Source: a virus. Taken from it: a stretch of DNA of 64,000 nucleotides. Position 1 is the first letter of the stretch, and every line of letters starts with the position of its first letter. Made by a program: the position numbers and the translations under genes. This document shows positions 19,259-36,242 of this stretch, one piece after another. A model generated the notes under the pieces. The model saw only the letters and a list, made by a program, of their open reading frames with translations, had not been told where the DNA came from and did no database searches. The stretch is from IMG/VR virus record IMGVR_UViG_3300031951_000022, positions 32,001 through 96,000 of that record, one strand, 5' to 3'.

Positions 19259-19421
19259 CAATAACTGTTAACTTTTTATATTGGGTTAGGATTATATCAT
19301 TCGTCATAAGTCTTTTCATAATTTCACCTAAACCCTTGACAGCACTACACTTACACCTCATTGTATCGTCACTTACAGCAAGAGTCTATAGCGTAAGTGT
19401 GAGATTCTTTGACAAAATTGA

Positions 19422-19503
19422 CGTAAGTGGTTGTCAGAATTAAACTTACGACAAAATCCGGCGGCCCCGCCCGCCATAAGTCCCCTTGGGCAAAGGACTT
19501 ACG
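19422..19503. repeat. double-palindrome element copy 1
   Basis: CGTAAGTGGTT-N7-TTAAACTTACG, 24 bp GC spacer, CATAAGTCCCC-N7-AAGGACTTACG; a lone palindrome also lies at 19328-19356. Confidence 0.9.
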
Positions 19504-19533
19504 ACGAGTTTCGGGGTCTCGATTTTACGCTAT

Positions 19534-20487
19534 TCAGACCGCATTAGCAAAATCCATAGCGATATTTAGTGCCTTGAGATTATCGTTGGCATTTTGACCG
19601 AACCATAGAGAGTCGAGCCGATTATCGGTCGTGCGACCTTTACTGTAGTTAAGATATTCATTAAAGCCATTGTAAGCAGCCCACCAAGTTCCACGAACAT
19701 TAGTAGCAGCTTGCTTCGGCCCTTCGACGCGAGACAGAATATCATCCATGATATTGCGGGTACGAGTCTTAATATCTTCATCAACCGTCTTGTCGATACC
19801 AAGTACCATCTTAACGTACTTCTTAATATCGTTCTGATTAAAGTTCTTAGAAGCGAGGAATCGGAACTGTTCTGCCGTAGCTTCAAACTCGGCATTAATA
19901 TTGTCCATAATATCACGCACGTTATCCAGATTATTTTTACTGGAGCGAGTGTGACGAATACGAATCAGTTTACTAGCCTTGTTATGATGAGCAGCAGCCA
20001 GAGTGTTGACACAGACCACACGAATCGGAGTATATCCGACACGAATAGCCGTTGTACCATCATGGCTATTACTCAGCAGGATAAACTTACAAACTTCATC
20101 ACCCTTAACAATTTCGCTATTGTCTCGGTTGAGTTGAGCAAGAACCCAAACTTTCTGACCGCTATGGAGCGAACCGGCAGTATGCAGATTGCACTCGCCA
20201 GCGTCAAGAAACGGCTGAAACCAATCAAAAGCATCCTGATTCTGGAGGGGCGTATAACGAGGCCCAACAACCCCAAGGATGCTATTATCAGTCTTGCGGT
20301 ATGTAGCACGGTGCGATACGTGAATACCGTCAACGGTTTGCAAATCCTTCAAGCCTACTTCCCAATCCAGACCGGCAGCAGTAATAGCTTCGCTAATCGT
20401 GGGGGCTTCATCCAACTGATTGCCAAGGCCATGCCAAGGGGTAGCACCAACAAACATCATTTTTTCAACAGCAGCAGGCATAATCAA
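19534..20487 (-). CDS. DUF932 family phage/plasmid protein
   Basis: PWHGLG, AGLDWEV, Y.PLQN..AF, LLSNSHDG, TPIRVVCVNTL, GTWWAAYN motifs. Confidence 0.88.
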   Translation of the reverse strand: MIMPAAVEKMMFVGATPWHGLGNQLDEAPTISEAITAAGLDWEVGLKDLQTVDGIHVSHRATYRKTDNSILGVVGPRYTPLQNQDAFDWFQPFLDAGECNLHTAGSLHSGQKVWVLAQLNRDNSEIVKGDEVCKFILLSNSHDGTTAIRVGYTPIRVVCVNTLAAAHHNKASKLIRIRHTRSSKNNLDNVRDIMDNINAEFEATAEQFRFLASKNFNQNDIKKYVKMVLGIDKTVDEDIKTRTRNIMDDILSRVEGPKQAATNVRGTWWAAYNGFNEYLNYSKGRTTDNRLDSLWFGQNANDNLKALNIAMDFANAV

Positions 20488-20526
20488 CCCTTTCGTGTTA
20501 TCTACTTTCGTTCTTCCGATACTCTG

Positions 20527-20567
20527 ATTCTACTATATCTTATCGGCGTGTCAAGAGGAAAACTTGC
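20527..20567 (-). promoter_or_regulatory. nested sigma70-type (TTGACA-N16-TAGAAT) and sigma28-type (GCAA-N16-GCCGATAA) promoter; representative of ~15 similar sites
   Basis: Minus strand gcaagttttcctcTTGACAcGCCGATAAgatatagTAGAAT. Confidence 0.7.
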
Positions 20568-20581
20568 GAAAAAAATCTCGT

Positions 20582-20663
20582 CGTAAGTGGTTGAAAATAC
20601 TGGACTTACGACTTGCCGGCCCCGCCGCCTTGCTCCTAACCCTTTGGGGCGTAAGGGTTTAGG
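20582..20663. repeat. double-palindrome element copy 2
   Basis: 20582-20610 + 24 bp + 20635-20663. Confidence 0.9.
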
Positions 20664-21151
20664 AGGCTCATGTTGTAGTCTTTTTCAAATAATTTGATAT
20701 TTTTTAATGTATAAGCACATTCATCTGGGATATAACAATAAAGTCCTACACACCTTGCCCTTTCATATTCGCGTGAGATAGTCCGGTTAATATGCCTAAG
20801 AGTATCGCCACTACATATAAGATCATCAAGGATGATATACCTAAAAGGTGCAACTCCCTCCATAGTGAATTCTGAATATCTTTTTTCTGAATCTTTTCTA
20901 ACAATCAGAATATGTTTATCCAGCAGTTCCGCCACTTGTGGAACAACCATGAGGCCACTGGTACCACAACAAGCAATAGTATCAAACTGATTAGAGATTT
21001 TTCTTAAATCACATACAGCTTTGATAATAATCTTATTACGTTCCCGATGATTTAATACTCTGCAAGTATGGTCAGCTCCTTGAATATACTGTCCGTCGTT
21101 TGTTTTACGGAAGTCTTCAACATCGTGCCAATTTTTAGTGATATCTTGCAT
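20636..21151 (-). CDS. type I phosphoribosyltransferase
   Basis: PRPP-binding motif YIILDDLICSGDT; G.SG...A......IVRK. Confidence 0.82.
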   Translation of the reverse strand: MQDITKNWHDVEDFRKTNDGQYIQGADHTCRVLNHRERNKIIIKAVCDLRKISNQFDTIACCGTSGLMVVPQVAELLDKHILIVRKDSEKRYSEFTMEGVAPFRYIILDDLICSGDTLRHINRTISREYERARCVGLYCYIPDECAYTLKNIKLFEKDYNMSLLNPYAPKG

Positions 21152-21157
21152 AGTTAA

Positions 21158-21248
21158 AGCGGACGATACGATTCGAACGTACTAATGAAAAGAAGGAGAA
21201 AGGAGTTTTCCTTATAAAGAATTACTTGTCCCACCAAGCTGCGTCCGC
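21158..21248 (-). ncRNA. tRNA-like RNA with a degenerate anticodon arm and a pyrimidine-rich (CUCCUU x2) insert
   Basis: Acceptor GCGGACG/CGUCCGC, D-like GCUUG/CAAGU, T arm GUACG-UUCGAAU-CGUAU. Confidence 0.65.
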
Positions 21249-21260
21249 CGAGGAGAAAGA

Positions 21261-21416
21261 CTACTCATCTACCAATTCATCTGCAATGTTATGATAATAA
21301 TTATCCCATTCTGGAGTACTGTCTACGACATCAGTATCATCTTCATATAAATATAAATCGTCATAGTTGGATGCAAGATTATCGTAATCATGATCGTATT
21401 CGTCGTAGTAACTCAT
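21261..21416 (-). CDS. 51 aa highly acidic/aromatic protein
   Basis: MSYYDEYDHDYDNLASNYDDLYLYEDD...; RBS AGGAGA upstream; below the ORF-track size cut-off. Confidence 0.65.
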   Translation of the reverse strand: MSYYDEYDHDYDNLASNYDDLYLYEDDTDVVDSTPEWDNYYHNIADELVDE

Positions 21417-21464
21417 AACATCTCCTATAAACCTATCTTACACCATCTAGAGAAACTTGTCAAG

Positions 21465-21537
21465 TGGGCCCCCAGGGACTCGAACCCTGAACCTAAGAGT
21501 TAAAAGCTCCTTGCTCTGCCAATTGAGCTAGAGGCCC
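21465..21537 (-). tRNA. tRNA-Lys(UUU)
   Basis: Cloverleaf; anticodon loop CU-UUU-AA. Confidence 0.93.
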
Positions 21538-21759
21538 GAACCTTATTCTACAACAGAGTAACTATAACTATCCACATCATCCATATAAGCAGCCTGTACC
21601 CTGTCAAATACATCCATATAATTAAAGTCAAGACTATCCATAGATATAATCAAATCGGTCAAACTCTGTCCTTCACTATTAAGAATATCATAGATATGAA
21701 CATTCTTCATCTATTCTCTCCTTTTTGATTATCATACCGTGTCCGAATCATTCTGTCAA

Positions 21760-21831
21760 TAGCCCTATGGAGAATCGAACTCCAATCTCCACCTTGAAAG
21801 GGTGGCGTCATAGCCATTAGACTATAGGGCC
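21760..21831 (-). tRNA. tRNA-Glu(UUC)
   Basis: CCACC-CUUUCAA-GGUGG anticodon arm. Confidence 0.93.
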
Positions 21832-21865
21832 ACAAACCATCGTAACTCTAACGTCAGCCTCCGAA

Positions 21866-21939
21866 TAGGGCGTGTAGGAGTCGAACCTACCTTTTGAATA
21901 CCTTATAAGAGTATGTGCAACTACCGGCTGCAACGCCCC
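21866..21939 (-). tRNA. tRNA-Ile(UAU)
   Basis: AUACU-CUUAUAA-GGUAU anticodon arm; T loop UUCGACU. Confidence 0.85.
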
Positions 21940-21991
21940 ATGTTTCTTAGATCATACTCTCTTTATCGGCTGTTGTCAACTACTTCTTTAG

Positions 21992-22078
21992 CGGAATCTG
22001 AGGGATTCGAACCCCCGGAGGATTTTAACCCTCGGCGGTTTAGTAAACCGCTGCCTTAAACCACTCGGCCAAGATTCC
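21992..22078 (-). tRNA. tRNA-Ser(ACU), long variable arm
   Basis: GCGGU-UUACUAA-ACCGC; class II variable arm; G73. Confidence 0.88.
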
Positions 22079-22080
22079 AA

Positions 22081-22151
22081 CAAAGGCGGAAGGAATCGAA
22101 CCTTCATCTACGGTTTTGGAGACCGTCATTCTACCGTTGAACTACGCCAAT
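22081..22151 (-). tRNA. tRNA-Trp(CCA)
   Basis: ACGGU-CUCCAAA-ACCGU; two U-U mismatches in the acceptor stem. Confidence 0.82.
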
Positions 22152-22154
22152 AAA

Positions 22155-22226
22155 CTGCCCGACTAGGACTCGAACCTAGAACCTACAAATTAACAGTTTG
22201 CCGCACTACCATTGTGCTATCGGGCA
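22155..22226 (-). tRNA. tRNA-Asn(GUU)
   Basis: GCAAA-CUGUUAA-UUUGU; U1-A72. Confidence 0.92.
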
Positions 22227-22294
22227 ATAACTTGGTGTATAAAATGGTAACACACCATACAAGTATACACCTATTCTACCAAAAGGATTCATAA

Positions 22295-22801
22295 ATGCAA
22301 GCCAAACCAAGAAAAAATCGTAGTAAAATATGGTCAATGCCAGTAGATGATTTTAAATTATTAGTATCACAAAGTTCTACAATAGGCGAAATTTTATCAT
22401 ATTTTAAATTACGAAATAAAGGAGGTAATAGTAATACAGTTAAAAGACGTATTAAATATGAAAATATTGATATATCTCATATAAAACTTGGTAAAGGGTC
22501 CAATAAAGGTAGAACATTTAAACCCCGAAGATCCAATCAAGAACTTTTTACAAAAACATCTAATGCTCAAAACAAAGATCTAAAAAAGAGAATCTTAAAA
22601 GATAAACTATTACCATACCAATGTGAGTGTGGTTTATCACATACATGGAATAATAAACCATTAATATTACAACTAGATCATATCAATGGAAATCCACAAG
22701 ATAATAGGCTATCAAATTTACGATTTCTATGCCCAAACTGTCACAGTCAAACAGAAACATATGCTTCAAAAACTAGATGCCCGGCTAGGAGTCGAACCTA
22801 G
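22295..22801 (+). CDS. HNH homing endonuclease inserted in the tRNA cluster
   Basis: LQLDHINGNPQDNRLSNLRFLCPNCHSQT. Confidence 0.9.
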   Translation: MQAKPRKNRSKIWSMPVDDFKLLVSQSSTIGEILSYFKLRNKGGNSNTVKRRIKYENIDISHIKLGKGSNKGRTFKPRRSNQELFTKTSNAQNKDLKKRILKDKLLPYQCECGLSHTWNNKPLILQLDHINGNPQDNRLSNLRFLCPNCHSQTETYASKTRCPARSRT

Positions 22802-22849
22802 AACCCGCTGGTCCAAAGCCAGCTGCTCTACCAATTAAGCTACCGGGCA
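22777..22849 (-). tRNA. tRNA-Gln(UUG)
   Basis: GCUGG-CUUUGGA-CCAGC; U1-A72. Confidence 0.92.
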
Positions 22850-23068
22850 ATTATTATTTATCTCTATGAGAACCACTATCTTTCCTACTATCTCTCAAAT
22901 ACTTAGCCGCCTCTATCATCCAATATCCCATTTTTTCAATTTTATCTGCTTCTTTACCAGTAAGGTATGATGCAGTATGAATAAAAATATACTCTATCTT
23001 ACCTTTAGATACTATATCTAGTACCCCAACTGTACTATCAATAAATTGTTCTGGTTTTTTCATATCTA

Positions 23069-23140
23069 AGCCCACAGAGGGAATTGAACCCCCATCCGAT
23101 GATTACAAATCAACTGTAATAGCCATTATACTATGCGGGC
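23069..23140 (-). tRNA. tRNA-Thr(UGU)
   Basis: Anticodon loop UU-UGU-AA; acceptor GCCCGCA/UGUGGGC. Confidence 0.9.
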
Positions 23141-23174
23141 AGACTACATATCATACTCATTACGCCATGCTCTG

Positions 23175-23549
23175 TCAATATCTTGACGTGTACGCTGGCG
23201 TTTGGGTCTGTTGTCCATAAGCGTATCTCGGTGTTCGCGGTGGCCCGTTGGGAGTTCCCACTGGTGTTTGGTTTTGACCTTGATATTGCCGTACTTGCGG
23301 CGAGGACGCATATCGTCGTTGTTCTGGGGCGTAATCATACCATAATCCATCTTCGTGTTTATAAAAAACCTTATCTACGTTAGGGTCATACGCCATTAAG
23401 CAGTATTGTATAGGATAAATTACCTTTGTCAACTCTTTTTTTTCTTGCAGAGCTGGCAGTTTAATTTCACCCTTTTGATAATCTTTTACACCATTCCACA
23501 CAAAACCGATCAAAGCAATAGCTACGCCAATCCATTGTATCATACGTTC
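23175..23549 (-). CDS. hypothetical membrane-anchored protein; the overlapping 23144-23350 ORF is also plausible
   Basis: TM segment MIQWIGVAIALIGFVW. Confidence 0.5.
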   Translation of the reverse strand, partial: ERMIQWIGVAIALIGFVWNGVKDYQKGEIKLPALQEKKELTKVIYPIQYCLMAYDPNVDKVFYKHEDGLWYDYAPEQRRYASSPQVRQYQGQNQTPVGTPNGPPRTPRYAYGQQTQTPAYTSRY

Positions 23550-23620
23550 ATTCCATGTCAAGAGCCTTTTCCGTCCCATAGAAGAATTATCGGCCATCTC
23601 CTTTTCAATCTTTAGCTTTT

Positions 23621-23702
23621 CCTAAGTCTTTGCGGGGCAACAACTTACGGCAAATCGGGCCGGCCCGGCCACGCCTAAGTCCTTACGTGGCAACGGGTTA
23701 CG
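23621..23702. repeat. double-palindrome element copy 3
   Basis: 23621-23649 + 24 bp + 23674-23702. Confidence 0.9.
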
Positions 23703-23703
23703 A

Positions 23704-23937
23704 TCACTTTTCCATAGTCCACTTAGCCTTTTTCACAACCTTCTCTGTTTTATATACCTTAGTATCTGGTAATGCTGAAACATAGTCTTTAAATCCACGC
23801 TCATCTATATAAAAATACTCATCTAATATATCAAACTTATTAGTTTCCCATAAAGCGTCACACGCTGCCCCAAGAGGACTTTTATTAGTAGAATAAATAA
23901 GTTCTAAGGTGTTGCTCTTAATATAATACTTAGGCAT
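23704..23937 (-). CDS. hypothetical protein (likely start MPKYYIK)
   Basis: Start overlaps the stop of the kinase-like gene. Confidence 0.6.
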   Translation of the reverse strand: MPKYYIKSNTLELIYSTNKSPLGAACDALWETNKFDILDEYFYIDERGFKDYVSALPDTKVYKTEKVVKKAKWTMEK

Positions 23938-24541
23938 ACTCTGGTTCCTCATGTTGACCACAACAGGCTTCACAGTTACAGTATGTGTTCTCCGAACCCT
24001 CCCAACAAACTTCGGGCCAATCACTTTCGTCAACTGGTGTTAAACTTTCTCGCCCAAAATCAATAACCACCAATACTTTTTCTTTACCTCTTTTAACATA
24101 TCCTAAATTATTCTCATGGGCATCAGTATAAGAGATACCATTATCCTCCATGTCGTTCAACAAATCTTGTATAGCATAATAATTAGAACACAAATCATTA
24201 CAGGCACAATCTCCATCACAATCCATAACGTCTTTACAGACATAAGGCTTTGCAATTTCGGTCAAATATCCCCAGTCGCTCAATACCATTTCCGTAACTG
24301 TAATCATCTCACCCTTGTCATTCTGCTTAACAAAATAATTAGGTATTCTAATCCTACAAACAGGACTATAAACCCTTGGGGCCATATATGGAGCTAAATG
24401 ATCCTGAACAGCATGAGCAAAAGAGGCCAAGCTTTTATTAGGAAAACTTTTGAAGCCATAGCTTTTACCTTTTACCTTATAAAAAGCATTTTGGCTACCA
24501 GCGTCTTGATATTTTCCAACATAACTATATTTAGTAGGCAT
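23930..24541 (-). CDS. protein-kinase-like (ePK/APH fold) protein
   Basis: Gly loop AGSQNAFY, GFK (VAIK-like Lys), catalytic DAHENN, VIDFG. Confidence 0.72.
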   Translation of the reverse strand: MPTKYSYVGKYQDAGSQNAFYKVKGKSYGFKSFPNKSLASFAHAVQDHLAPYMAPRVYSPVCRIRIPNYFVKQNDKGEMITVTEMVLSDWGYLTEIAKPYVCKDVMDCDGDCACNDLCSNYYAIQDLLNDMEDNGISYTDAHENNLGYVKRGKEKVLVVIDFGRESLTPVDESDWPEVCWEGSENTYCNCEACCGQHEEPEYA

Positions 24542-24550
24542 GATATTCTC

Positions 24551-25264
24551 TTAGTGGGAGGGAAACAAGACATTAGCCAAACCACGCGGACACAAATCAC
24601 AATGTACACTATTTTTGGTTTTGGTGCAAGTCACGACACCTCGACCACGACGGATTTCTGGACAAGTAATAAACTTCTCACCCTCCAACACAACCAGCTT
24701 CGGCAGTGCTGCTCTCCATGCGTCGGCTTTAGCCTTACTGCGAGGACGCTTGGGAGCGATTTTAGTATCACTATCGCACCATGCAAAAAGTTTGAAACCA
24801 GCCTCTTTCGCTTGTTTCATATCTTCGCCATCGTGGATACTAGCATACATATTTATGTACTTGCCAAGTTCAGTAGACAGCCGAGTATCATAGATATGGG
24901 TATAAGCCCACATGGTCGGCAGACTACCACCACTAGCAAGAATACTCTCACAAGCCCACAATACATTATTGACATATTCATTGTCGAGTTGACCGTCTTT
25001 AAAAAAGTCGCCACGTTCATGCCAGCGAACATCTTTATTTTTCTTGACAGCATCTACGAGCATCGCACGGATACGATTTTTTTCCGTGATAAGATTTTGC
25101 ATAGCAGCAGGACGAACACCGGGATAGATATTTTCCAAATCCTCAGCATAGCATCCGTTCCCGAGAAAATCACAATCGGGAGGACAAGTATCGCCAACAG
25201 GACGACTCACTACGATACAGTTTTCCTTACCCAACTTATCGTTACCATTTGCCGTTTTCATCAT
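24551..25264 (-). CDS. gp88-like Cys-rich phage protein
   Basis: GN.KLG, TCP..C....CYA, VRWHERGDF, WAYTH, CP....C..C motifs. Confidence 0.6.
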   Translation of the reverse strand: MMKTANGNDKLGKENCIVVSRPVGDTCPPDCDFLGNGCYAEDLENIYPGVRPAAMQNLITEKNRIRAMLVDAVKKNKDVRWHERGDFFKDGQLDNEYVNNVLWACESILASGGSLPTMWAYTHIYDTRLSTELGKYINMYASIHDGEDMKQAKEAGFKLFAWCDSDTKIAPKRPRSKAKADAWRAALPKLVVLEGEKFITCPEIRRGRGVVTCTKTKNSVHCDLCPRGLANVLFPSH

Positions 25265-25344
25265 GCTTCTCCTAGCGTGTCTCTCGATTCTACACTATAT
25301 GATCGACAAGTCAAGAGAGAAACTTTAGCAGAGAAAAATTTAAG

Positions 25345-25426
25345 CGTAAGTCGTTGTGTGGCAAGCACTTACGTCAAGGCCGGCCGCCCGGATTTGCCCT
25401 AAGTCCTTATGCGTAAAGAACTTAGG
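25345..25426. repeat. double-palindrome element copy 4
   Basis: CGTAAGTCGTT-GTGTGGC-AAGCACTTACG + 24 bp + CCTAAGTCCTT-ATGCGTA-AAGAACTTAGG. Confidence 0.92.
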
Positions 25427-25481
25427 AGAAGCTCACAAGCTTTTAAGAATTGTTCGGTAGCTTCTGCGTGATTATTCATAA

Positions 25482-25553
25482 TAGCCCCAAGAGGAATCGA
25501 ACCTCTAATCACTGCTTAGAAGGCAGTTGTTATGTCCATTTAACTATGGGGCC
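25482..25553 (-). tRNA. tRNA-Arg(UCU)
   Basis: ACUGC-CUUCUAA-GCAGU. Confidence 0.92.
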
Positions 25554-25617
25554 ATAATACCGATAGCCGCCAGTATTACCAGCGGCGTATCGGATTATTA
25601 TAGCACAGGTGCTAGGT

Positions 25618-25878
25618 TCAGGCAACAGCCTCAACTTCCTCAATCTTACTGGTCTTAGCCTTGTGACCGTCACCGGCATCCTTCACACTGATACCAAAAA
25701 TCCGACTACGAGCAACCTTCCAACCCTGCTCCGAATAGTCCTTGATACCCTGAGCCTTTACCACCACCGGAGTCTCATCCGGCAGAGCATCGGCCAGAGC
25801 CGAACTGATCGTCTGCTCTACAACCTCATGGTCAAGAACTTCGCTGGCAACAGCAACCTCAAAACGATAAACGTGCAT
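25618..25878 (-). CDS. hypothetical protein (start MHVYRFEV)
   Basis: RBS GAAAGG and own TTGACA-N17-TAGAAT promoter at 25922-25950. Confidence 0.65.
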   Translation of the reverse strand: MHVYRFEVAVASEVLDHEVVEQTISSALADALPDETPVVVKAQGIKDYSEQGWKVARSRIFGISVKDAGDGHKAKTSKIEEVEAVA

Positions 25879-26076
25879 AATATAAACCCTTTCCAAAAGT
25901 GTTATCGAACCAAGTAAACCAATTCTACCTAATGAATCATCACTTGTCAAGGGCTAGGTTGAACATTATTTGTTGCGATCAACCAGCGTCTTGTCGTGTG
26001 ATGCTATCATTCTACAATAAGTATCGACACTGTCAAGTCCATTCGTGAATCATTTTTTCAGATTTGCGAAATTTGC

Positions 26077-26158
26077 TCTAAACCGTTGCAGCATAAGCAC
26101 TTACGTCGAATCCGGCCCCGCGGCCTCGCCCTAAGTTCTTTAGGAGCAAGGCTTTAGG
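26077..26158. repeat. double-palindrome element copy 5
   Basis: 26077-26105 + 24 bp + 26130-26158, abutting the stop codon at 26159. Confidence 0.9.
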
Positions 26159-26530
26159 TCAAGAAAGAAAACCCTCACAACCCAAGTCCCTCATTTCACG
26201 AAGAAGAAAAAGAGCCTTTTCAGGAGTATTCAGAGTGATGCTCTGCTTGGCATTTGGATTACCAGCAACATGCCTATCGCCCTGAAATCCACCAGTAAAA
26301 ACATCGGTCCAATCCTTGCTCTCTTTCAATCCCCAGCCAGTAGCGGCACGAATAGCCTTAATGCAAGGGATTCGGTTGTCAAGAGTCATACCACCAGTAA
26401 TGGTAACGGTCTTGTTCTGGTTCACACCAAGAGCAACCTCAAAAGCGGTTACGATCCGCTCATAGATTTCCAGATTGCAGTTCGTCGCAAGATTCATAGC
26501 CTCACGAACACTCAGTTCCAACTTAATCAT
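26159..26530 (-). CDS. ribosomal protein L7/L12 C-terminal-domain-like protein
   Basis: RIPCIKAIRAATGWGLKESKDWTD matches bL12 KI.VIK.VR..TGLGLKEAK..V. Confidence 0.75.
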   Translation of the reverse strand: MIKLELSVREAMNLATNCNLEIYERIVTAFEVALGVNQNKTVTITGGMTLDNRIPCIKAIRAATGWGLKESKDWTDVFTGGFQGDRHVAGNPNAKQSITLNTPEKALFLLREMRDLGCEGFLS

Positions 26531-27005
26531 ATATTCCAAAACTTTCTGTATATTTAGGTTCGATCTCGTAAATACCGTCAAAATTTCCATTTCGTTCTTC
26601 TAGGACATATACCTGTTTACCACCAGTAATCAAGGTATCATATTCACTATTGTCCCAAATAAACTCATTGTTATCGCTTTCTCGTCGCCAGTGTGGGTCA
26701 CGAAGTGGATTATAATACAGCTTTTCCAGATTGTCAACAGGCAAAATCGGATAAAAACTTTTTCTCAACATAAATTCTTCACATCTTACCCATCCACTCA
26801 CATCATGCACACCAGCCTCAAATACCTGTTTAGCCTTATTGGGTCTATTCCACAGTTTACAACCCCGCATTTCTAACTGATACTCAGCAGGGTCATAATA
26901 GTACACATCGACAGTTTTACCGCCTTGCTTCACTTTCACTTGCCAAAACTTATAGTTTGGCCCATTACTAAGGTGAAATCTAACTTCTGCATGAAGATTT
27001 TTCAT
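26523..27005 (-). CDS. hypothetical protein
   Basis: 160 aa ORF overlapping the next gene start. Confidence 0.7.
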   Translation of the reverse strand: MKNLHAEVRFHLSNGPNYKFWQVKVKQGGKTVDVYYYDPAEYQLEMRGCKLWNRPNKAKQVFEAGVHDVSGWVRCEEFMLRKSFYPILPVDNLEKLYYNPLRDPHWRRESDNNEFIWDNSEYDTLITGGKQVYVLEERNGNFDGIYEIEPKYTESFGIYD

Positions 27006-27070
27006 TGTCCATCACTTTATTGGTGTATACTGTAGTATAGTGCTTACCATCTTATCACAAGGAAAACCAT

Positions 27071-27535
27071 ATGTCAATACCAGAAACGAAAGTCTGTGCA
27101 AAATGCAAGATAGAAAAATCGGCTAATGAATATAGTATAGTTAAAACAAAAAGAGGTAAATATAATCCTCATTTAAGTAGCCGTTGTAAATTATGCAGAG
27201 CGGAGGACCAAACCAAACACCGCAAACCATACGATTCAGATTATGCTCTATCTTGGAAGTCTAAAAATCCGGATAAAGTTAAACAATACCAAAAAGATAT
27301 CTATCAAAAAAGAAAGTTACGTTGGGAAAACTTTATGAAAACACAAAAATGTAGTAGATGCGGCATATCTGATTATCGAGTCTTACAATGGCATCATATT
27401 GATCCATCAACTAAAACTATGACAATAGGCGCCCAAGCAAGACAAGGAAAATGGAATCAAATCATGGAAGAAGTCAAAAAATGTATTTGCGTCTGTGCTA
27501 ATTGTCATTTTATTCTTCATTCTGAAGAAAATTAA
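27071..27535 (+). CDS. HNH homing endonuclease
   Basis: CSRCG...LQWHHIDP...EVKKCICVCANCH. Confidence 0.87.
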   Translation: MSIPETKVCAKCKIEKSANEYSIVKTKRGKYNPHLSSRCKLCRAEDQTKHRKPYDSDYALSWKSKNPDKVKQYQKDIYQKRKLRWENFMKTQKCSRCGISDYRVLQWHHIDPSTKTMTIGAQARQGKWNQIMEEVKKCICVCANCHFILHSEEN

Positions 27536-27703
27536 TTATTTCCTACTTTTAGGATTATCAACAGCCTCTGCTAACTTTTCCCACAGATCCTCTACCAGTT
27601 GTTGATTACAGTCAACAGCTCTAAAAGGAACGTAATAAATAGCGTCCAAAAACTCATTGACAAGTTGTTTTAGTTCTTGGAGTTCAATACTTTCAGTTTT
27701 CAT
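27536..27703 (-). CDS. hypothetical protein
   Basis: RBS AAGGAG and promoter TTGACT-N16-TATAAT at 27723-27750. Confidence 0.6.
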   Translation of the reverse strand: MKTESIELQELKQLVNEFLDAIYYVPFRAVDCNQQLVEDLWEKLAEAVDNPKSRK

Positions 27704-27750
27704 CTTTCTCTCCTTTGTCACCATTATACCATTCTTTATCGGTAAGTCAA

Positions 27751-28352
27751 GTACCACCACACTGATAGTTTTACGAAGAATACGTGGTACTGTATTGTCT
27801 TCAACCTCAAGGTTTTACCTTATCTAAGGAAACTATCAGCAGAGTTGTAACCAGCGGAACTTTTTACGCCCCAGTTCCTATAACCCACCAATACCCCGAT
27901 ATTATGAACCCTTGGAGCAAGGTAAACACTGGTGGAAACCGCCCACGGAAACCTCCCTGTAACCGGATGAACTGCTAGCATCATGTTCCGGTTAGTCTGG
28001 CTCTTGGTGACGGTTACTGGTTGTATTGTATATGGCAACGTTTTTAGCCTATCACAGAGGATGGGAAGGGCGAACGTTTTTAATCCTAACCTATTATCTA
28101 GGAACCATAATAATCATCGTGGTGAGGATGCCATCCCCCATAGATTGGTACTTCTATCTAACGTATAACTCCGTTAGCAACCCCACGCTGCATAACAGCC
28201 GTAGGTTTATCGAAATAGGTTATCCCAATCTAGTCCCGCCGCATGGACCCACGAAAGTTTGTCATAGTACGCTAGGTTTAGTGCTGCTTCTCTATCCTAG
28301 CACGGCTTAGTATGATGTTATCTCTGGCACTTAACCGCTATGTTTGTATTGT
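27751..28352 (-). ncRNA. candidate large (~600 nt) structured ncRNA (ROOL/GOLLD-like size and context)
   Basis: No credible ORF; own TTGACA promoter at 28359-28386; many nested helices and a 3' pseudoknot. Confidence 0.65.
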
Positions 28353-28427
28353 GTCACCAATATAGCATACGTTCTTGGTTTGTCAAGCGTACAACACCGA
28401 ATGAATCGGATTTTCGTTGGTGACTAG

Positions 28428-28529
28428 GGGCGAAGGGTGGAATCGAACCACCTCATGGGCATTTGCTTGCCTACTCCACTGGTCAGTGTCTCGGAACTTC
28501 CCACACGCTACCATTACGCTACATTCGCC
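28428..28529 (-). ncRNA. tRNA-like RNA with a ~40 nt expanded anticodon loop
   Basis: Acceptor GGCGAA/UUCGCC, D loop AAUGGUA, stem GUGGG/CCCAU, T arm GGUGG-UUCGAUU-CCACC. Confidence 0.65.
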
Positions 28530-28589
28530 ATGTCTTACTCTATCATTCTACACTCTATTATCGGCTTGTCAAGAGGGTTTCTTGAATTT

Positions 28590-28796
28590 TTAGTTGGCAG
28601 ACGGAGACAAAACCTTTTCGGCCGTTTCCACAATATAATTCATCATCACCTTTTGCAAAACCTTTTCTGCCAAAAAAATAGCATTAGCCTTATCCATATT
28701 ACCCACACCTTGCATTTGAGCAATACTTACCACAGTTCCAGTAAACTCCATAATTTCTGCCAGAACCATATCGCTTTTAGTTGGTACAGCAATCAT
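28590..28796 (-). CDS. hypothetical protein
   Basis: RBS GAGGAG; promoter at 28816-28844. Confidence 0.65.
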   Translation of the reverse strand: MIAVPTKSDMVLAEIMEFTGTVVSIAQMQGVGNMDKANAIFLAEKVLQKVMMNYIVETAEKVLSPSAN

Positions 28797-28855
28797 GATT
28801 TTCTCCTCTATTAGGATTCTACACTATGAATTAATGCTTGTCAAGGGTACGCAAA

Positions 28856-28906
28856 TCTCGCTGACTAAATCCACCCAAGCCGAATCCGTAGGATTAGGAG
28901 AGACTA
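28856..28906. repeat. family-2 repeat copy 4
   Basis: tctcgctgacta..ccgaatccgtaggattaggagagacta. Confidence 0.82.
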
Positions 28907-29107
28907 GCAATCCGCTCTAGCCAAATGTCTTTACCATATTTTTCGCTAGCTTTCCTAGTCGCGTCAGTTTCGCTAAACGATACAACATAACCCACAAAGC
29001 GATTATGCTGAAAAACACGCCAAGTGTAACCGGCATAGCAGTTCATGGTTTTCATACCCTGATTCTACAGTATTATCGGCATTTGTCAATAGGAGTCTTT
29101 AATTTGT

Positions 29108-29189
29108 CGTAAGTTGTTGTGGAGCAAAGAGTTACGACGAATCCGGCCCGCCGCCCTAGTCCTAAGTGCTGCCGTAGCAACGACTTAGG
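29108..29189. repeat. double-palindrome element copy 6
   Basis: 29108-29136 + 24 bp + 29161-29189. Confidence 0.9.
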
Positions 29190-29220
29190 AGAAGGGTTTT
29201 TGGTTTTAGTGTACTAGTGT

Positions 29221-29628
29221 TCAGAGCATAGCCGCAACTGCATTGCGGAAGAGTCGGTTGGTGAACACACACCTACGCACGTTCTTAGTACGCTCTGCAT
29301 AGAAGTTGCGAATACTACCGTCAACCATTTCACACGTTACAAGATGCTTAGTACGCTTGAAATTAGGATCATTAACACGGTAATTACTACGAGCATTAAG
29401 CCTCTTAATCTGGTAGTCATCCATAGTATAAACAGGCTCAATAACCCTAGCAAGAATACGCTCAGGCTCACCATGATAAGGCTGCTCATATTCAAAGTTA
29501 TAAACTTCTCCAACCTTAGCATTGGTAAGCGAACCATGTACGCCACGAACAATATTATACGCCAGAGCAAGCAAAGCAATGACACCAACCACACCAGCAC
29601 CAATCATCACAATCGTTTCATTCGACAT
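29221..29628 (-). CDS. membrane-anchored hypothetical protein
   Basis: N-terminal TM; own dual promoter at 29668-29708. Confidence 0.65.
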   Translation of the reverse strand: MSNETIVMIGAGVVGVIALLALAYNIVRGVHGSLTNAKVGEVYNFEYEQPYHGEPERILARVIEPVYTMDDYQIKRLNARSNYRVNDPNFKRTKHLVTCEMVDGSIRNFYAERTKNVRRCVFTNRLFRNAVAAML

Positions 29629-29692
29629 AAAAACCCTTTCTTTAGAAGACAAACCCTCAATGACTCAAGTCTATACCATATATCGGCAGTTG

Positions 29693-29956
29693 TCAAGCGT
29701 GAACTTTACCAAAATTCTCAACCCAAAATTCTTGCATTTCATACAGGTTGACGCCCGTATCATGCCAAGAAATTCGGTCAGGAGTTTCGATACCAATCTT
29801 TCCATGCTTGCAAACCTCACGAATTTCATTCTTGAAAGTGTCGTAAGAATCACACTGGGCCGCAAATCTATTTAGACCTTCATCATTTGATATCCACAAA
29901 CAGACATTCCATGTGGCATAATTAGCATAACCGTTGTAAGTGCCATCAGGACTCAT
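29693..29956 (-). CDS. conserved phage hypothetical protein
   Basis: YNGYANYATWNVCLWISNDEGL motif, frequent in phage early regions. Confidence 0.7.
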   Translation of the reverse strand: MSPDGTYNGYANYATWNVCLWISNDEGLNRFAAQCDSYDTFKNEIREVCKHGKIGIETPDRISWHDTGVNLYEMQEFWVENFGKVHA

Positions 29957-30041
29957 GATTAACCCTTTCGTTAGGTGACACCCTAAGCATACCATATAGA
30001 TCGGCTAATGCAAGGGCTAATCTTGAAAAAATTTTTTTAGA

Positions 30042-30123
30042 CGTAAATCCTTGTGGCATAAGTACTTACGTCGAGCTGGGCGGCGCGGCCTCGCCCTAAG
30101 TCCTTTAGTGGCAAGGCTTTACG
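30042..30123. repeat. double-palindrome element copy 7
   Basis: 30042-30070 + 24 bp + 30095-30123. Confidence 0.9.
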
Positions 30124-30130
30124 CTCAATT

Positions 30131-30363
30131 TCACTCAAAGTCTACGAAAATTACTTGATTGTAACCCCGCGGCTTAATAGTGAGACTGTCACCATAATCG
30201 TAAGTATCACTCTTAACGCCAGTCATACCAGCCGCAAGCTTAGCCTTTCGCACAATATTACGTTGTGATGCCTCAGAGTTAATAGCAAACTCATAACGGT
30301 TAGCCCAAGAGTAATTAGCTTCACCACCAAAAGTATCGGTCTGCGTAACGGTAACCTTCATCA
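30131..30363 (-). CDS. conserved phage hypothetical protein
   Basis: TDTFGGEANYSW motif; start position approximate. Confidence 0.65.
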
Positions 30364-30417
30364 TCTTATTATTCCTATTAGAGAAAAAAGTATCGATCCA
30401 ATTTTTAATGTCTTTAC

Positions 30418-30705
30418 TCATTCACCTCCATAATAGTCTTCATACATTGGGGTGTCATCCCCGTAATATCCATAGTCTTCATCTGTACCCCAACCAACAG
30501 ACTCCATAGCCGAATCGTGGTCGCCATCCATGCTATCATCATACTCATCTGCGTCATCCATAGCCCTATCTGTCCACCAATTTTCATCCTCATGACCATC
30601 ATACAGGTACTCGGCAAAAAGAATATCGCTAGGATCATGCTCAACAATCATATCATCATCCTCGTAAGAGTTATCGGGATCGAAAAGGGGGTCAGGGTGA
30701 CTCAT
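30418..30705 (-). CDS. extremely acidic protein (DNA-mimic candidate)
   Basis: About one third D/E, no Lys, one Arg; RBS AGGAG. Confidence 0.7.
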   Translation of the reverse strand: MSHPDPLFDPDNSYEDDDMIVEHDPSDILFAEYLYDGHEDENWWTDRAMDDADEYDDSMDGDHDSAMESVGWGTDEDYGYYGDDTPMYEDYYGGE

Positions 30706-30718
30706 GACTTTCTCCTAT

Positions 30719-30907
30719 TTAAGAAACATACCATACTTCGCCGTTCTCGTCAACCATCTCTTGCGGCTCTGGATACATTTCTTCCCAAAGCCCCGTCACT
30801 TCCGCATAGTCGAAAGGATCGCAGTTCGGTTCGTCAATCGGCTCGACCATACCCTCGTCAACCATTCCGTTCAGGATCGCGTTGATTTCATCAAAATCGT
30901 TCAGCAT
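30719..30907 (-). CDS. acidic hypothetical protein (start MLNDFDEIN)
   Basis: RBS GGGAG and dual promoter at 30933-30972. Confidence 0.6.
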   Translation of the reverse strand: MLNDFDEINAILNGMVDEGMVEPIDEPNCDPFDYAEVTGLWEEMYPEPQEMVDENGEVWYVS

Positions 30908-31043
30908 GATCTTTCTCCCTTGTGATGCTTTCATTCTACAGTATTTATCGACCAATGCAAGCGAAATCTTTGGAAAAAAGAAAATATAATTCCATGCCAA
31001 ATGAAGAAAATTCTTTCGGCACAGCATTTGCGTTGAAACTCGC

Positions 31044-31125
31044 CCTAAGTGCTTACGCCACAACAACTTACGTCAAGCCGGGCGGGCCGCGTTCGCCCTA
31101 AGTCCTTATGCTGCAAGCACTTAGG
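31044..31125. repeat. double-palindrome element copy 8
   Basis: 31044-31072 + 24 bp + 31097-31125. Confidence 0.92.
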
Positions 31126-31138
31126 TTAAGAATTAACT

Positions 31139-31561
31139 TCATTTCTTTCTTGCAGGAAAAACCAAATTAGACAATAATGATACTATCTCTTCATTAACAA
31201 AGCCAATAATAAATGCCACAAATACCCACACCCAGTTTATATCGTCTAACATCTGTGTAAGCCTTTAGTTTAGAAGTACAGCAAAAATCAGACCGAAAGC
31301 AAAAGCCATGCCGAATATAATAAATTCCTTACGCATATTACCTTTTCTTCCTAATAGGATAAACCAGATCAGCCACCACCCACGAACTACCCACACCAAT
31401 TATAAAACCAAGGCCCATCCATAGCCATTCTACATTTAGATTATCTAACATCCATGTATTCCTTTGTTTTAGAGCTTATCCCCCATATCTAAAATAGCCA
31501 GAGCAATACCGCCCACAACTATAATAGAAAACATATACAATAAAAAGGTCAAAATTATCAT
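31139..31561 (-). CDS. four tandem tiny single-TM peptides (31139-31252, 31265-31336, 31338-31451, 31469-31561)
   Basis: Manual translation; 23-37 aa hydrophobic ORFs, two of them paralogous. Confidence 0.6.
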
Positions 31562-32211
31562 GATACCACCATCCTATCCTCAAACTCTGTACCATCCTGC
31601 AAGTACCATTCATGCTTTTTCTGATAAACTTTAACAGAAGAATACTGATTAATACGCTTTTTAGTAGTAACAGTCCGCTGGCGGGACAGGTAGCAACATC
31701 CAGTGAGTGATAACTTGATCAGTTTTGCCCCATTTAGTATTTCCATTTTCTTTTCCTTTGTGATAGCTGTCGAGCATATTACTTCTCCACGTAATTGGTA
31801 AGTTCGTTCTGATTGAAGATACCATGCTGGCCGTTTTCGTCAACAACAAAAAACATAATCAAAGGCTGTCCGCTATGCGGAAGCATCCCTGTCTTTTGGA
31901 TAATCACATCAAAACTTTTAACGGTTACTTTTTTACCGCTGGGGGTGGTGGCGTGAATCGTAATATCAGTGGTCGAAGGATTCATTTTATCTCTTTCTAT
32001 TTATCGACATTCTACAGGATAAACTTTAGGCCGTCAACTCTGCAAAATCCACAATTCGAAGAATTTTTCCTTCCGAATCAACTTCGCAGACCGAGCAATC
32101 GTACTGGTACAGGAAACGGCTCTGAATATCACGCTTCCAAACCACAACAGCTTCCGCAAGAGTAGCATATCGGGCAGTCTGAACAAAACCATCATGAGCA
32201 ATTGCAAACAT
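31558..32211 (-). CDS. small hypothetical proteins (31558-~31777, 31779-31985, 32026-32211)
   Basis: ORF track with upstream promoter motifs. Confidence 0.5.
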
Positions 32212-32354
32212 CTTTCTTTCTCCTAACTCTTATATCGACATTCTAGCGTCTAGTCTTTAAATTGCAAGAGAAAAATCTGAAATTTTGTGTCAAGAGTTTT
32301 TGACAAAACTTTTCTGCCTTTTGCTAGATTTGGCATATGATTTGCTAGATCGGT

Positions 32355-32436
32355 CGTAAGTCGTTATGCCTCAAGTACTTACGTCAAATTCGGCCCGCCG
32401 CCCGCGTCGTAAGTCCTTACGCCACAAGGGTTTGCG
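32355..32436. repeat. double-palindrome element copy 9
   Basis: 32355-32383 + 24 bp + 32408-32436. Confidence 0.9.
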
Positions 32437-32464
32437 TCAAGTTTTTTTTGCTAGTGTACGGATG

Positions 32465-32982
32465 TCACCCCTCCGAAAAGGGGGAGACTTCCTCACCACA
32501 TGCCTGAATGGCTGTATACTGTTCGATAAGAGCCTGAACACGCTCACGCGAACCCGGCTTGCCAACCTTTACGATCATAAGATCTTCACCCCCCACAAAG
32601 CGGGGATCGTTATTTTCTTTCTTTTTCTTGCCAATGTTACGCAACGCGGTACGATTGAACTTCAAAATCTTTTCGCTCTTGATTGGCCCATACTCTCCGT
32701 TAGCTAGAGTCGGTTGGTGCGGAATGGCAATTCCCACAAAGCACATGCGAGCTTGACGCTTGGCGTTTTCGATAATTGCAAACTTGGTCATTTCTCTTTT
32801 CTCCTTAGTTGGATGAATTGTAGGGAATTGTTTTAGGGTTGTCAAGAGCATTTTGCCAAAAGATTCTGAACATATCGAAGTTTAGCGACATCATACCTAA
32901 TTTGCCCATTTTGCATACACAGCACAACCTTGCCATTCTCAACAAAAGCAATCGTGCTACCAGAAACTTTTACGGCTTTCAT
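32465..32982 (-). CDS. two hypothetical proteins (32465-~32791, 32842-~32982)
   Basis: RBS-bearing starts MTKFAII and MKAVKVS. Confidence 0.6.
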
Positions 32983-33346
32983 TTTCTTTCTCTCTTTCTC
33001 TTTCCAGTATTCTAGCAAGTATTTTTTGGGAGTCAATAGGTTTCCGAAAGCATAGCTTCCAGTTTCGCAATCTCTAGGCGAATCTTGCGAACCATAACCC
33101 AATCCCTATCATTCTTGTAGTTATCCAACTCATAACGAAGGCCAATGATTTCTTGCATAACTTGCATCTTAACGTTTTTCATTTTCATTCTCTCTTTCTT
33201 TCTCTCTTACTTCTTATATCGACATTATACCAGCTATTCTTTAGCTTGCAAGAGAAAAATCCACATTTTTATGTCAAGAGATTTTGACAAAACTTTTGCT
33301 TGTTTTGTGGATATGTGGCACGGGTTTTGTATTTGGTTGGATTAGC

Positions 33347-33427
33347 TGTAACTCCTTATGCCACAAGCACTTACGTCAAATCCGCCCGCCCGCCTTGTCG
33401 TAAACCCTTACGTACCAATCACTTACG
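33347..33427. repeat. double-palindrome element copy 10
   Basis: 33347-33375 + 23 bp + 33399-33427. Confidence 0.88.
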
Positions 33428-33477
33428 CTTAGCGTTAATCTCTTTAAGAATAGCCACGATCATAGGAATTCCGGTAT

Positions 33478-33741
33478 TCATTTGTTCACCTCATTCTGCA
33501 CAAACTTGGTTACCACCTTGCCTGTACTCTTGTCCAGCATCTTCACATTAAACTTTTGCCCACTACCATCCTCAAGCAGTACGCCGAGGATATGTCCCAT
33601 TGTAGCCGATCCGTCGTTAGCTACAAGTGTCACAAGAATTCTATCGGCCATCGTTATAGCGATACGCTTGGCGTTTGCATAGCGATAGCAGTTAAGAGGC
33701 TTCCCGTTTGAGTCGTGATAATGAATGGCATTCTTTTGCAT
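33478..33741 (-). CDS. hypothetical protein
   Basis: 87 aa ORF with EDGSG.KF motif. Confidence 0.6.
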   Translation of the reverse strand: MQKNAIHYHDSNGKPLNCYRYANAKRIAITMADRILVTLVANDGSATMGHILGVLLEDGSGQKFNVKMLDKSTGKVVTKFVQNEVNK

Positions 33742-34504
33742 GGCTAATTTCCTTAGAGAATCGTACCATCACCACGAATACGATACATGATACCGCCGAT
33801 ACTGTACAGGCTGATACCCTCGCCCATATGCTGCACAAACGTAGCCGAATATCCATGTCGAGCAACCAACCGGCGAACTGTATTTTGTACTTGAATGGTC
33901 ATTTCTTTTCTCCTCTGTATGATTCTATTCTAGCAAGATTTTTTAGATCGTCAATACTATACAGAAGATCAGCCGTCATCATATCCTTCTTCGAACTTCT
34001 CCAGCATCTTAGCCCTAAGATCGTCGTTCACGTTCATGTTTTCGCAATATGCTTCAAACTCGTTTGAGGAAGCCTGATCGTATCCCATGTTGTAAGCCGC
34101 AATCATCAGTTCGTCAATCTGGTTCATTTTCTTTTTCTCTTTCTTTCTTGTTGATGAATTCTATACAGTTCTTATCGGCTTGTCAAGTCTATTTCTTGAG
34201 ATTCTCAAAAAACTTTTTCACAGCCAAATCATTCTGAACCATATCCTTATTCACGATTGGCATGGCATATGCCTTAGCAACCATAACCTTTTGATTCATT
34301 CTCTTAACCGCATTTTGCATCGTCTTATTCATCATCTTCTTTCTCTCTTTCTTATGCCACAATTATACCTACATCATCGTCCAAAGTCAAGCCCCACCTT
34401 GAAAATATTTTTGGATTTTTCCTAAGTTATTATCCTACAAGCACTTAGATCAAAAAGATTTTTTATGATTGCTCAATGGACACGTTACACAATGAGAAAG
34501 TGTG

Positions 34505-34585
34505 CGTAAGTCTTTGTGTCGTAAGGGTTTACGTCAAATTTTGCTGCCCTGTTTGTCGTAAGTCTTTGTCCCACATATGGTTAGG
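34505..34585. repeat. double-palindrome element copy 11, plus a lone palindrome at 34421-34449
   Basis: 34505-34533 + 23 bp + 34557-34585. Confidence 0.85.
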
Positions 34586-35922: not shown

Positions 35923-36028
35923 TTCATAATCCTCCTTGAAAGATATGAGGATTCTAACCCAGAAAAAGCAATAGTCAAGAAAAAAAATGAGGGATCCCGA
36001 TTTGGCCGAGATCCCCCATTAATTTCAT

Positions 36029-36242
36029 TCAAACTACAGTATTTTCACCAGCACTTTTCTTTCTACGACCCCTGGGCTTGCTAACTCCCAGCTTTCGTCT
36101 TTGACGTCTAATCATACCATAAGTTACAGTTTCCCCAGTCATTTCACTCAGCTTCTTAGCTAGCTCATCATCACTAAAACCATTAAGATTGTCCTTAATA
36201 TACTGCAATTCAACATCTGTCCATCTTTTATATGTAGCCATA
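36029..36242 (-). CDS. small HTH/Myb-like DNA-binding protein
   Basis: RWTDVELQYIKDN....SD.ELA..L......I..QRRKLG. Confidence 0.65.

Follow-up and report, generated by a model that had tools for sequence, protein, structure and literature searches.

Oriented double-palindrome modules between the early gene units of an uncultured freshwater phage: putative docking sites for a host DNA-binding protein

An oriented array of modules in the early region

The early region of an uncultured freshwater phage of about 158 kb contains an array of 11 modules, each of 82 bp and consisting of two 29-bp palindromes that are held in a fixed geometry around a GC-rich spacer. On balance, we favour the interpretation that these modules are docking sites for a global DNA-binding protein of the host, which would set or insulate early transcription, and that recombination between the copies also permutes the gene cassettes that lie between them. 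The array is present in the window analysed in this work, viz. a stretch of 64,000 nt corresponding to bases 32001–96000 of the 157,712-bp IMG/VR record IMGVR_UViG_3300031951_000022, which is rated complete by CheckV; all coordinates below are those of the window unless marked as genome coordinates. The hosts of this phage are probably planctomycete bacteria similar to the members of Pirellulales.

A search of the window with the pattern CSTAAGT-NN-TT-N7-AA-NN-ACTTASG, allowing up to 3 mismatches, yielded 23 matches, compared to a mean of 0.16 in shuffled sequences (shuffle maximum 2). The whole 157,712-bp genome was also scanned, and the motif is restricted in it to genome coordinates 51.4–66.6 kb, i.e. 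about 15 kb, where the GC content (0.39–0.43) is above that of the flanks. All of the module copies have a single orientation and the genes of the array are on the minus strand. An initial annotation of this DNA had described 11 doublets and two lone palindromes. The doublets were all found at the starts given there, as was the lone palindrome at 34421; however, the one placed at 19328 is a degenerate relic, whose best register is at 19327. The palindromic features of the array are as follows.

19422..19503, minus strand: doublet 1, with a 29-24-29 layout; only a weak promoter-like site, 33 bp downstream
20582..20663, minus strand: doublet 2; overlaps the 3' end of a PRTase-like open reading frame (ORF; 20636-21151); the -35 box TTGACA starts 27 bp past the module
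23621..23702, minus strand: doublet 3; upstream ORF ends at 23704; strong promoter 59 bp downstream (23561-23534)
25345..25426, minus strand: doublet 4; both palindromes exact; promoter 30 bp downstream (25314-25287)
26077..26158, minus strand: doublet 5; upstream ORF ends at 26159; promoter 40 bp downstream (26036-26009)
29108..29189, minus strand: doublet 6; promoter 18 bp downstream (29089-29062)
30042..30123, minus strand: doublet 7; upstream ORF ends at 30131; without a consensus promoter; next start codon 47 nt away
31044..31125, minus strand: doublet 8; both palindromes exact; without a consensus promoter in 130 bp
32355..32436, minus strand: doublet 9; upstream ORF ends at 32437; weaker promoter 87 bp downstream
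33347..33427, minus strand: doublet 10, with 52-bp spacing; distant, weaker promoter 95 bp downstream
34505..34585, minus strand: doublet 11, with 52-bp spacing and an AT-richer spacer; first module past the subtilase gene; without a consensus promoter
34421..34449, minus strand: single palindrome with 1 mismatch; -35 box 30 bp downstream (promoter 34390-34362)
19327..19355, minus strand: degenerate palindrome relic with 5 mismatches

In nine of the 11 doublets the second palindrome is offset by +53 from the first, and in the remaining two (33347 and 34505) by +52. The second palindrome of doublet 20582 shows 4 mismatches to the strict pattern, but it is still clearly a palindrome. The spacer had earlier been characterized as polar and GC-rich; what escaped notice is that the exact centre of each module is formed by a GC-rich dyad (GGCC|GGCC-like). 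Based on 183 distinct 53-bp doublets from 58 loci, which were oriented by means of a weight matrix, the halves of the two palindromes that face the spacer are the best conserved parts of the module, and the promoter-proximal palindrome is lengthened by TTTGA and ACAAA flanks. All three reading frames on the transcript strand are closed by stop codons within the module. The 7-bp cores of the palindromes, which were stated to differ in every copy, are indeed variable, but they are not random, since R-Y-G starts and GTGGCAT/ATGCCAC-like cores recur. An early impression that the spacer flanks pair with each other (CAA/TTG and CGA/TCG) was dropped on statistical grounds.

Location of the modules between gene stops and promoters

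Along the direction of minus-strand transcription, the stop of a gene is followed by the module, then by a linker that is first A-rich and then A/T-rich, and then by a sigma70-type promoter. The upstream ORFs (60 codons or longer) end at a few preferred positions relative to the first base of the module, viz. at -3 (20 cases), -4 (8 cases) and +2 (13 cases). If a promoter is called where at least 10 of 12 consensus positions match within 200 bp downstream of a doublet, then 126 of the 177 distinct doublets are followed by such a promoter; the predicted downstream side alone carries one in 66 copies and the opposite side alone in 3. The -35 boxes of these promoters start at +18 (14 copies), +28/29 (33 copies) or +39/40 (16 copies) past the module, with a few at 50–55, and the Rayleigh R for these offsets is 0.63–0.67 at periods of 10.5–11.5 bp, although descent-related copies inflate the formal p-value. 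In the window, the offsets are 27, 59, 30, 40 and 18 for five of the doublets and 30 for the lone palindrome at 34421, and the promoters that follow most of the modules, behind the A/T-rich linker, are of the form TTGACA-N16/17-TAGAAT. The arrangement that had been proposed from this single array, in which oriented elements separate the end of one unit from the promoter of its successor, is thus borne out, with ORFs ending at the module edge and promoters lying downstream. In its helical-turn spacing before a promoter, the module resembles a class I-like upstream transcription-factor site, and the early promoter, which is strong and sigma70-like and has an AT-rich tract before its -35 box, corresponds to that of the promoter-early stem-loops (PeSLs) of T4-type phages.

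Regarding the promoters themselves, the -10 form TAGAAT is favoured by the strong leftward promoters (7/17 in the array). In the whole genome, at least 11 of the 12 positions are matched by 39 promoters on the minus strand and by 5 on the plus strand; these cluster at genome coordinates 5–68 kb, marking the part of the genome that is dependent on the host RNA polymerase.

Evidence for double-stranded DNA sites over RNA hairpins

In view of their position directly after stop codons, the modules could also be thought to act in the RNA, as 3'-end hairpins that terminate or attenuate transcription, shield the mRNA from exonucleases or get processed, in the manner of PeSLs, of repetitive extragenic palindromic (REP) sequences or of the RNase III sites of T7. 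This explanation draws further on the paucity of canonical terminators between the cassettes of the window, on the ability of the 29-mers to fold (-6.5 and -4.2 kcal/mol, compared to about -2.5 for shuffles) and on the fact that the G/C-tract-rich stem-loops of PeSLs do terminate transcription (PMC2839356). However, a covariation test, in which a 148-sequence alignment in transcript sense was compared under a three-hairpin model with 500 shuffles, revealed no pairing excess over column composition: 70.4% of the stem cells were paired versus 69.9% in the shuffles, 64 of the 500 shuffles reached 70.4%, and the double-sided changes (18) were below the 21.3 of the shuffles. Of 144 copies, 83 and 72, respectively, lack pairing at two adjacent stem positions of the first hairpin. 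The sense and antisense stems are equally stable, the spacer folds no better than its shuffles, and most of the inverted repeats in the spacer have a gap of 0–2 nt, due to which these dyads are mostly without a loop. Further, the sequence past the module is A-rich and not U-rich and the stems are AT-rich and weak, so that the GC-rich stem with an immediate U-tract that characterizes a Rho-independent terminator is not seen, and neither is the stable terminator or attenuator stem-loop of a PeSL. The phage's own true terminator (35986-36020) looks quite unlike the modules, and in other lineages a textbook terminator adjoins the doublet. Lastly, copies of the palindrome in host chromosomes, described below, lie between divergent genes, and the 10.5-bp ladder to the -35 box lacks an explanation in terms of RNA. 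A function as RNA is thus very unlikely. The lack of a pairing excess, the weak folds and the helical ladder point to a double-stranded DNA site that is read by a protein, in agreement with the initial annotation. Its related observation, that mismatches in the two arms do not covary, is correct overall, except for the second position of the promoter-distal palindrome, to which we return below.

Conservation and rearrangement of the array in a family of viruses

A scan of viral contigs with the exact pattern identified at least 747 sites on at least 120 viral loci, and the figures for this family rest on the matches listed. Among these matches, palindrome pairs are most often 53 bp (186 pairs) or 52 bp (26 pairs) apart, and the geometry, with 53 bp predominating, is thus conserved in the relatives. 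The other spacing classes are of 40–42 and 46–50 bp; in these, the palindromes are more perfect (13-bp arms with a 3-bp centre) and the spacers are shorter GC-rich palindromes. In cultured phages, no DNA match, near or distant, was found either to the array or to one module, and the TerL protein shares only about 25% identity with terminases from Bacillus phages; due to this, no annotated relative of this phage is at hand.

About two dozen of the loci have cassette genes in common with the window, and in these relatives the modules are located at the same orthologous gene boundaries, despite a DNA identity of only about 70%. Their presence at the same boundaries in most relatives indicates that these are old, vertically kept sites and not actively mobile junctions. 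Most relatives are collinear, but in two of them (L062 and L121) the same cassettes are reordered or duplicated, with their orientation kept. Metagenomic DNA contigs from four runs contained many further relatives, whose joints are too unclean to place cassette insertions and deletions at the module edges; in one of these contigs, however, a spacer from module 34505 is joined to a second palindrome from module 23621. Recombination between modules apparently does happen, albeit rarely. Hence, of the earlier suggestion that the elements serve as junctions for cassette shuffling, the permutation and duplication of whole element-bounded cassettes in L062 and L121 can be retained, whereas the conserved orthologous positions in most relatives do not agree with it.

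The same observations bear on the possibility that a dedicated system of site-specific recombination or transposition moves the cassettes, either through an integron-attC-like site with an 11-7-11 tyrosine-recombinase core or in a REP/RAYT-like manner. Although the 11-7-11 layout resembles the core sites of tyrosine recombinases, and the permuted order in L062 and L121 and the joint between modules 34505 and 23621 are of the kind that such a system would leave, it should be noted that no match to a tyrosine recombinase (PF00589) or a Y1 transposase (PF01797) was found in the phage genome, and that the central 7 bp differ among copies, which is unfavourable to strand exchange. The orthologous positions of the modules across relatives of about 70% identity and the many dispersed single copies of the palindrome in promoter regions of host genomes also argue against it, and ordinary homologous recombination between direct repeats of about 100 bp suffices for the rare permutations. 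We consider a dedicated system of this kind extremely improbable.

In all of these loci the array ends at a divergent junction with the structural and late module, where genes for a sigma-like protein (36442-37062), HNH, ERCC4 and TerL proteins are found. The first of these encodes a protein of 206 amino acids (aa) at the head of the rightward module (plus strand), shows a sub-threshold match to Sigma70_r2 (E 8e-5) and is the most widely shared neighbour of the array (25 loci); it may direct the transcription of middle or late genes as a phage sigma factor.

A side observation on these lineages concerns the integration host factor (IHF). In those with TTGA-N3-TCAA cores (e.g. L027, L091 and L119), 55 of 88 palindromes contain, on one strand, a perfect E. 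coli IHF consensus, compared to an expected share of about 22% from the centre triplet, and to 11% in the palindrome type of the window. This excess is due to a bias in the 3-bp centres (CTA/TAG, TAA/TTA and TAT/ATA).

Presence of the single palindrome in planctomycete chromosomes

A scan of bacterial genomes with the same pattern gave many Planctomycetota among the matches. Five planctomycete genomes contained 4–11 sites each (at up to 2 mismatches), compared to none for the reversed pattern, whereas five non-planctomycete genomes that were ascertained likewise contained only 1–2 sites. The results of scanning random genome samples, at up to 1 mismatch and with the reversed pattern as control, were as follows.

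Pirellulales (the order of genome G001): 25 of 80 genomes with a site; 43 sites; 0 reversed-control matches
Phylum Planctomycetota: 15 of 120 genomes with a site; 30 sites; 2 reversed-control matches
Another phylum: 0 of 120 genomes with a site; 0 sites; 4 reversed-control matches

The link to planctomycetes, which was earlier only a guess, is thus supported by the enrichment of the single palindrome in their chromosomes (43 sites versus 0 for the control in the 80 Pirellulales), and it is based on this pattern that Pirellulales-like planctomycetes are regarded as the probable hosts. Approximately 12 of 16 classifiable host sites are located between divergent genes, and their neighbours include dnaK/pheA, rho, rplC, rpsM, a response regulator and an inositol monophosphatase. 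A degenerate palindrome is present 113–221 bp upstream of dnaK in about half of 30 Pirellulales genomes, with 4 or fewer mismatches in nine of the 30. The host sites look like those expected for a global host DNA-binding protein, as judged from their sequence context. A heat-shock regulon, which the dnaK site brought to mind, was rejected, as the rho, rplC, rpsM, sulfatase, thioredoxin-like and LspA neighbours do not fit it.

In genome G001, where dnaA is at 3.566 Mb, 5 of the 11 sites fall at 3.615–3.826 Mb; the GC skew, which was sampled every 300 kb only, is flat, and no cluster of DnaA boxes is present at the paired sites.

Interpretation of the modules and candidates for the binding protein

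The occurrence of the single palindrome in host promoter regions is the reason why the module is considered most likely to dock a host DNA-binding protein. According to this preferred reading, the module would be a composite double-stranded docking site, in which the palindromes are about five helical turns apart on either side of a stiff, GC-rich and partly dyad spacer, and a protein of the Planctomycetota host, either a global regulator or a nucleoid-associated protein, would most likely bind both of them, probably as one dimer each. If the bound protein is held on a fixed face of the helix, then it could set the adjacent early promoter one to three helical turns downstream, whether by activation or by repression, and it may also form a roadblock that insulates one unit from the next. 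The modules being direct repeats, recombination between them would occasionally reorder, duplicate or replace whole cassettes. For a role in organizing, protecting or pulling in the first-entering DNA, which had been put forward earlier, no evidence was found.

Several observations weigh against the docking of a host protein at early promoters as the explanation of these modules. Of the doublets in the family, 29% are without a nearby consensus promoter, and in the window the same is true of 3 to 5 of the 11, viz. 30042, 31044 and 34505, along with 32355 and 33347 if those with only distant, weaker promoters are counted. Due to these promoter-less doublets, promoter control cannot be the whole function. 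In addition, about 17 strong leftward promoters elsewhere in the genome are without a module, and the relation between modules and promoters is therefore not one-to-one. Because the copies are related by descent, the statistics of phasing overstate the number of independent events. The spacing in other lineages is 40–42 or 46–50 bp, and in the latter class the two palindromes would lie on different faces of the helix. The second position of the promoter-distal palindrome shows a CG/GC excess (110 Watson-Crick pairs versus 79 expected), and this palindrome has many changes that are G.T-compatible on the non-transcript strand. As for the host sites, they are either single or 78–118 bp apart and never form a doublet of the phage type, no clear promoter ladder was found around them, and clustering of the neighbours at 140 host-site loci gave no recurrent planctomycete gene family; the sole cluster was a conserved actinobacterial locus, in which the pattern is held by descent.

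The binding protein could also be encoded by the phage, in which case a protein that is delivered with the virion or made early, such as the D5-like or Myb-like proteins of the divergent junction, would switch the early cassettes off or on, and the copies in host chromosomes would either be unrelated or be targets that the phage protein also hijacks. The features relevant to this are listed below.

35986..36020, minus strand: canonical terminator with GC stem and U-tract, after the first leftward gene
36032..36241, minus strand: small Myb/SANT-like protein (70 aa), with which the leftward early region opens; matches PHROG 323 'D5-like regulator' weakly
37055..37876, plus strand: 273-aa conserved protein; weak match to PHROG 323 'D5-like regulator'

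Both of these proteins adjoin the array and match PHROG 323 ('transcriptional regulator, D5-like') weakly, at E about 5e-4; the 273-aa protein is among the best-conserved neighbours of the array (22 loci, up to 86% identity), and the doublet architecture is specific to the phages, being not seen in host chromosomes. However, four distant records that still bear doublets of the same palindrome, including one of 83% completeness, yielded neither protein; no homologue of the 273-aa protein was present in the host genomes examined; and the enrichment of the palindrome in core promoter regions of the hosts implies a host reader. The 70-aa protein, which the initial annotation had considered as one possible binder (a helix-turn-helix (HTH) protein at 36029-36242), is for the same reason not supported in a general role, and it is a candidate phage-encoded binder for the lineage of the window only. 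No gene for an HU/IHF, MerR or XRE-type HTH protein was found in the phage genome. A phage-encoded binder is, in our assessment, rather doubtful.

A bolder form of the host-protein reading, which we regard as improbable, is that the array is a multimerized operator of a planctomycete global regulator that also acts before the dnaK, rho and ribosomal-protein genes, and that it both couples the early promoters to this regulator and titrates it. If this were so, then the 22 or more high-affinity sites in each genome copy would couple the early promoters of the phage to the host regulator, and the replicating phage DNA would soak this regulator off the host chromosome, reprogramming the expression of chaperone, termination and ribosome genes. 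In this case, a cis-acting DNA 'sponge' would be the device of takeover.

Relationship to known systems

Literature searches found no published description of a named element of this kind, as the initial annotation had surmised, and nothing relevant was found concerning either the motif or palindromic promoter motifs of planctomycetes. The closest described system is that of the PeSLs in the T4-type phages RB49 and phi1 (Arbiol et al. 2010, PMC2839356), in which a single stable G/C hairpin, at a variable position in or around the promoter, has been shown to terminate transcription. The cassette logic is common to both: in each case, regulatory cassettes are repeated in a gene-dense early region full of small ORFs, the stop of the preceding gene occurs together with an AT-rich tract, a GC-rich dyad and a strong promoter of sigma70-like type, and recombination between copies shuffles the PeSLs, where it also gives mini-circles, and apparently, in two relatives, the modules. 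However, the terminator stem-loop that defines PeSLs is not present here, and the modules instead contain two AT-rich 29-bp palindromes of fixed geometry, which lie upstream of the promoter on a helical ladder, fold weakly and do not covary; further, the palindrome is also a motif of host chromosomes. We rate the modules as belonging with repeated regulatory cassettes and upstream operator modules.

Other known elements show a more partial likeness. The bacterial interspersed mosaic element BIME-1 (RIB/RIP) of E. coli has the structure REP – IHF site – REP and is thought to dock IHF and gyrase. Like the modules, it is extragenic, is located directly after genes, measures about 80–100 bp and has two imperfect palindromes around a conserved polar linker. 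However, REPs occur in hundreds of copies genome-wide, are spread by RAYT transposases and lie mostly at 3' ends without a phased promoter, whereas the modules are confined to 15 kb of a phage that has no Y1 transposase, and their linker is a GC clamp and not an IHF site. The modules also differ from integron attC sites in that the cassettes carry their own promoters and are bounded by two self-palindromes and not by one R''/L''-L'/R' site, and no IntI-type recombinase accompanies them. The sites for CRP at class I promoters, for Fis at rrn P1 and for p4 of phi29 resemble the modules in being palindromic double-stranded DNA sites placed upstream of the -35 box in helical-turn steps, with two sites per promoter. 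The phi29 p4 sites are inverted repeats 15 bp apart, and the outer arms in the modules are likewise separated by 15 bp; however, the sequences are unrelated, and here a two-site unit with a GC spacer is repeated at least 11 times, in some cases without a promoter. Lastly, operator-like repeats are known from other phages, e.g. the 17-bp dyads in mycobacteriophages of Cluster O and, in those of Cluster K, the start-associated sequences, and they may be compared with the modules as short conserved junction repeats, spread over the phage or over a region, that are presumed protein-binding sites. They differ in that they are single, short and not known from the host chromosome, whereas the module is an 82-bp unit with two palindromes of a host-type site.

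Gene regulation in Planctomycetota, and their phages, are almost unstudied, and the module provides a high-information motif that is common to phages and host promoters. It can be used as bait for a probable global planctomycete DNA-binding protein, and the motif is a practical signal for host prediction in hundreds of orphan viral contigs. An early region built of stop-module-promoter units also represents a second solution, beside that of the T4-type phages with their PeSLs. Should the binder prove to be a host regulator, this would be a rare documented case of a lytic phage that wires its whole early programme to a host factor via a repeated composite operator.

Other features of the phage and host genomes

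The subtilase gene (34690-35922, minus strand; Peptidase_S8, E 1e-45) comes second in the leftward early region and is located between a canonical terminator-promoter pair and the first module. It is apparently missing from the relatives in metagenomic contigs, where the sequence is joined from 34688 to 36255.

In the host genome G002 (loci L253, L254 and L257), several palindromes have another host repeat on either side of them, in the form of AATGTCGCA...TGCGACATTACTC-like inverted pairs, which suggests a composite repeat or an element similar to miniature inverted-repeat transposable elements (MITEs) that carries the palindrome. Another locus of this genome (L258, G002:3090200-3094200), about 35 kb from the main dnaA gene, has four palindrome-like sites in approximately 350 bp together with a CRP/FNR-like TTGTGA-N7-TCACAA dyad, and it may be a region of complex control or one that is related to an origin. 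In Streptomycetaceae (L153, L165, L225 and L240), an exact match is present at one conserved locus, which several actinobacteria have in common along with its neighbouring genes; this match is kept by descent and is unrelated to the phage family.

The two ends of the phage record (genome 1-1400 and 154700-157712) consist of related tandem repeats of about 50–100 bp with raised GC, and the contig probably broke inside a repeat-rich gene. A search of Rfam yielded tRNAs only. Nine tRNA genes (Lys, Glu, Ile, Ser, Trp, Asn, Gln, Thr and Arg) are interspersed among the cassettes at 21464-25554 on the minus strand, several of them with strong promoters of their own, and a weak tRNA-like match (32.5 bits) is located at 28429-28528.

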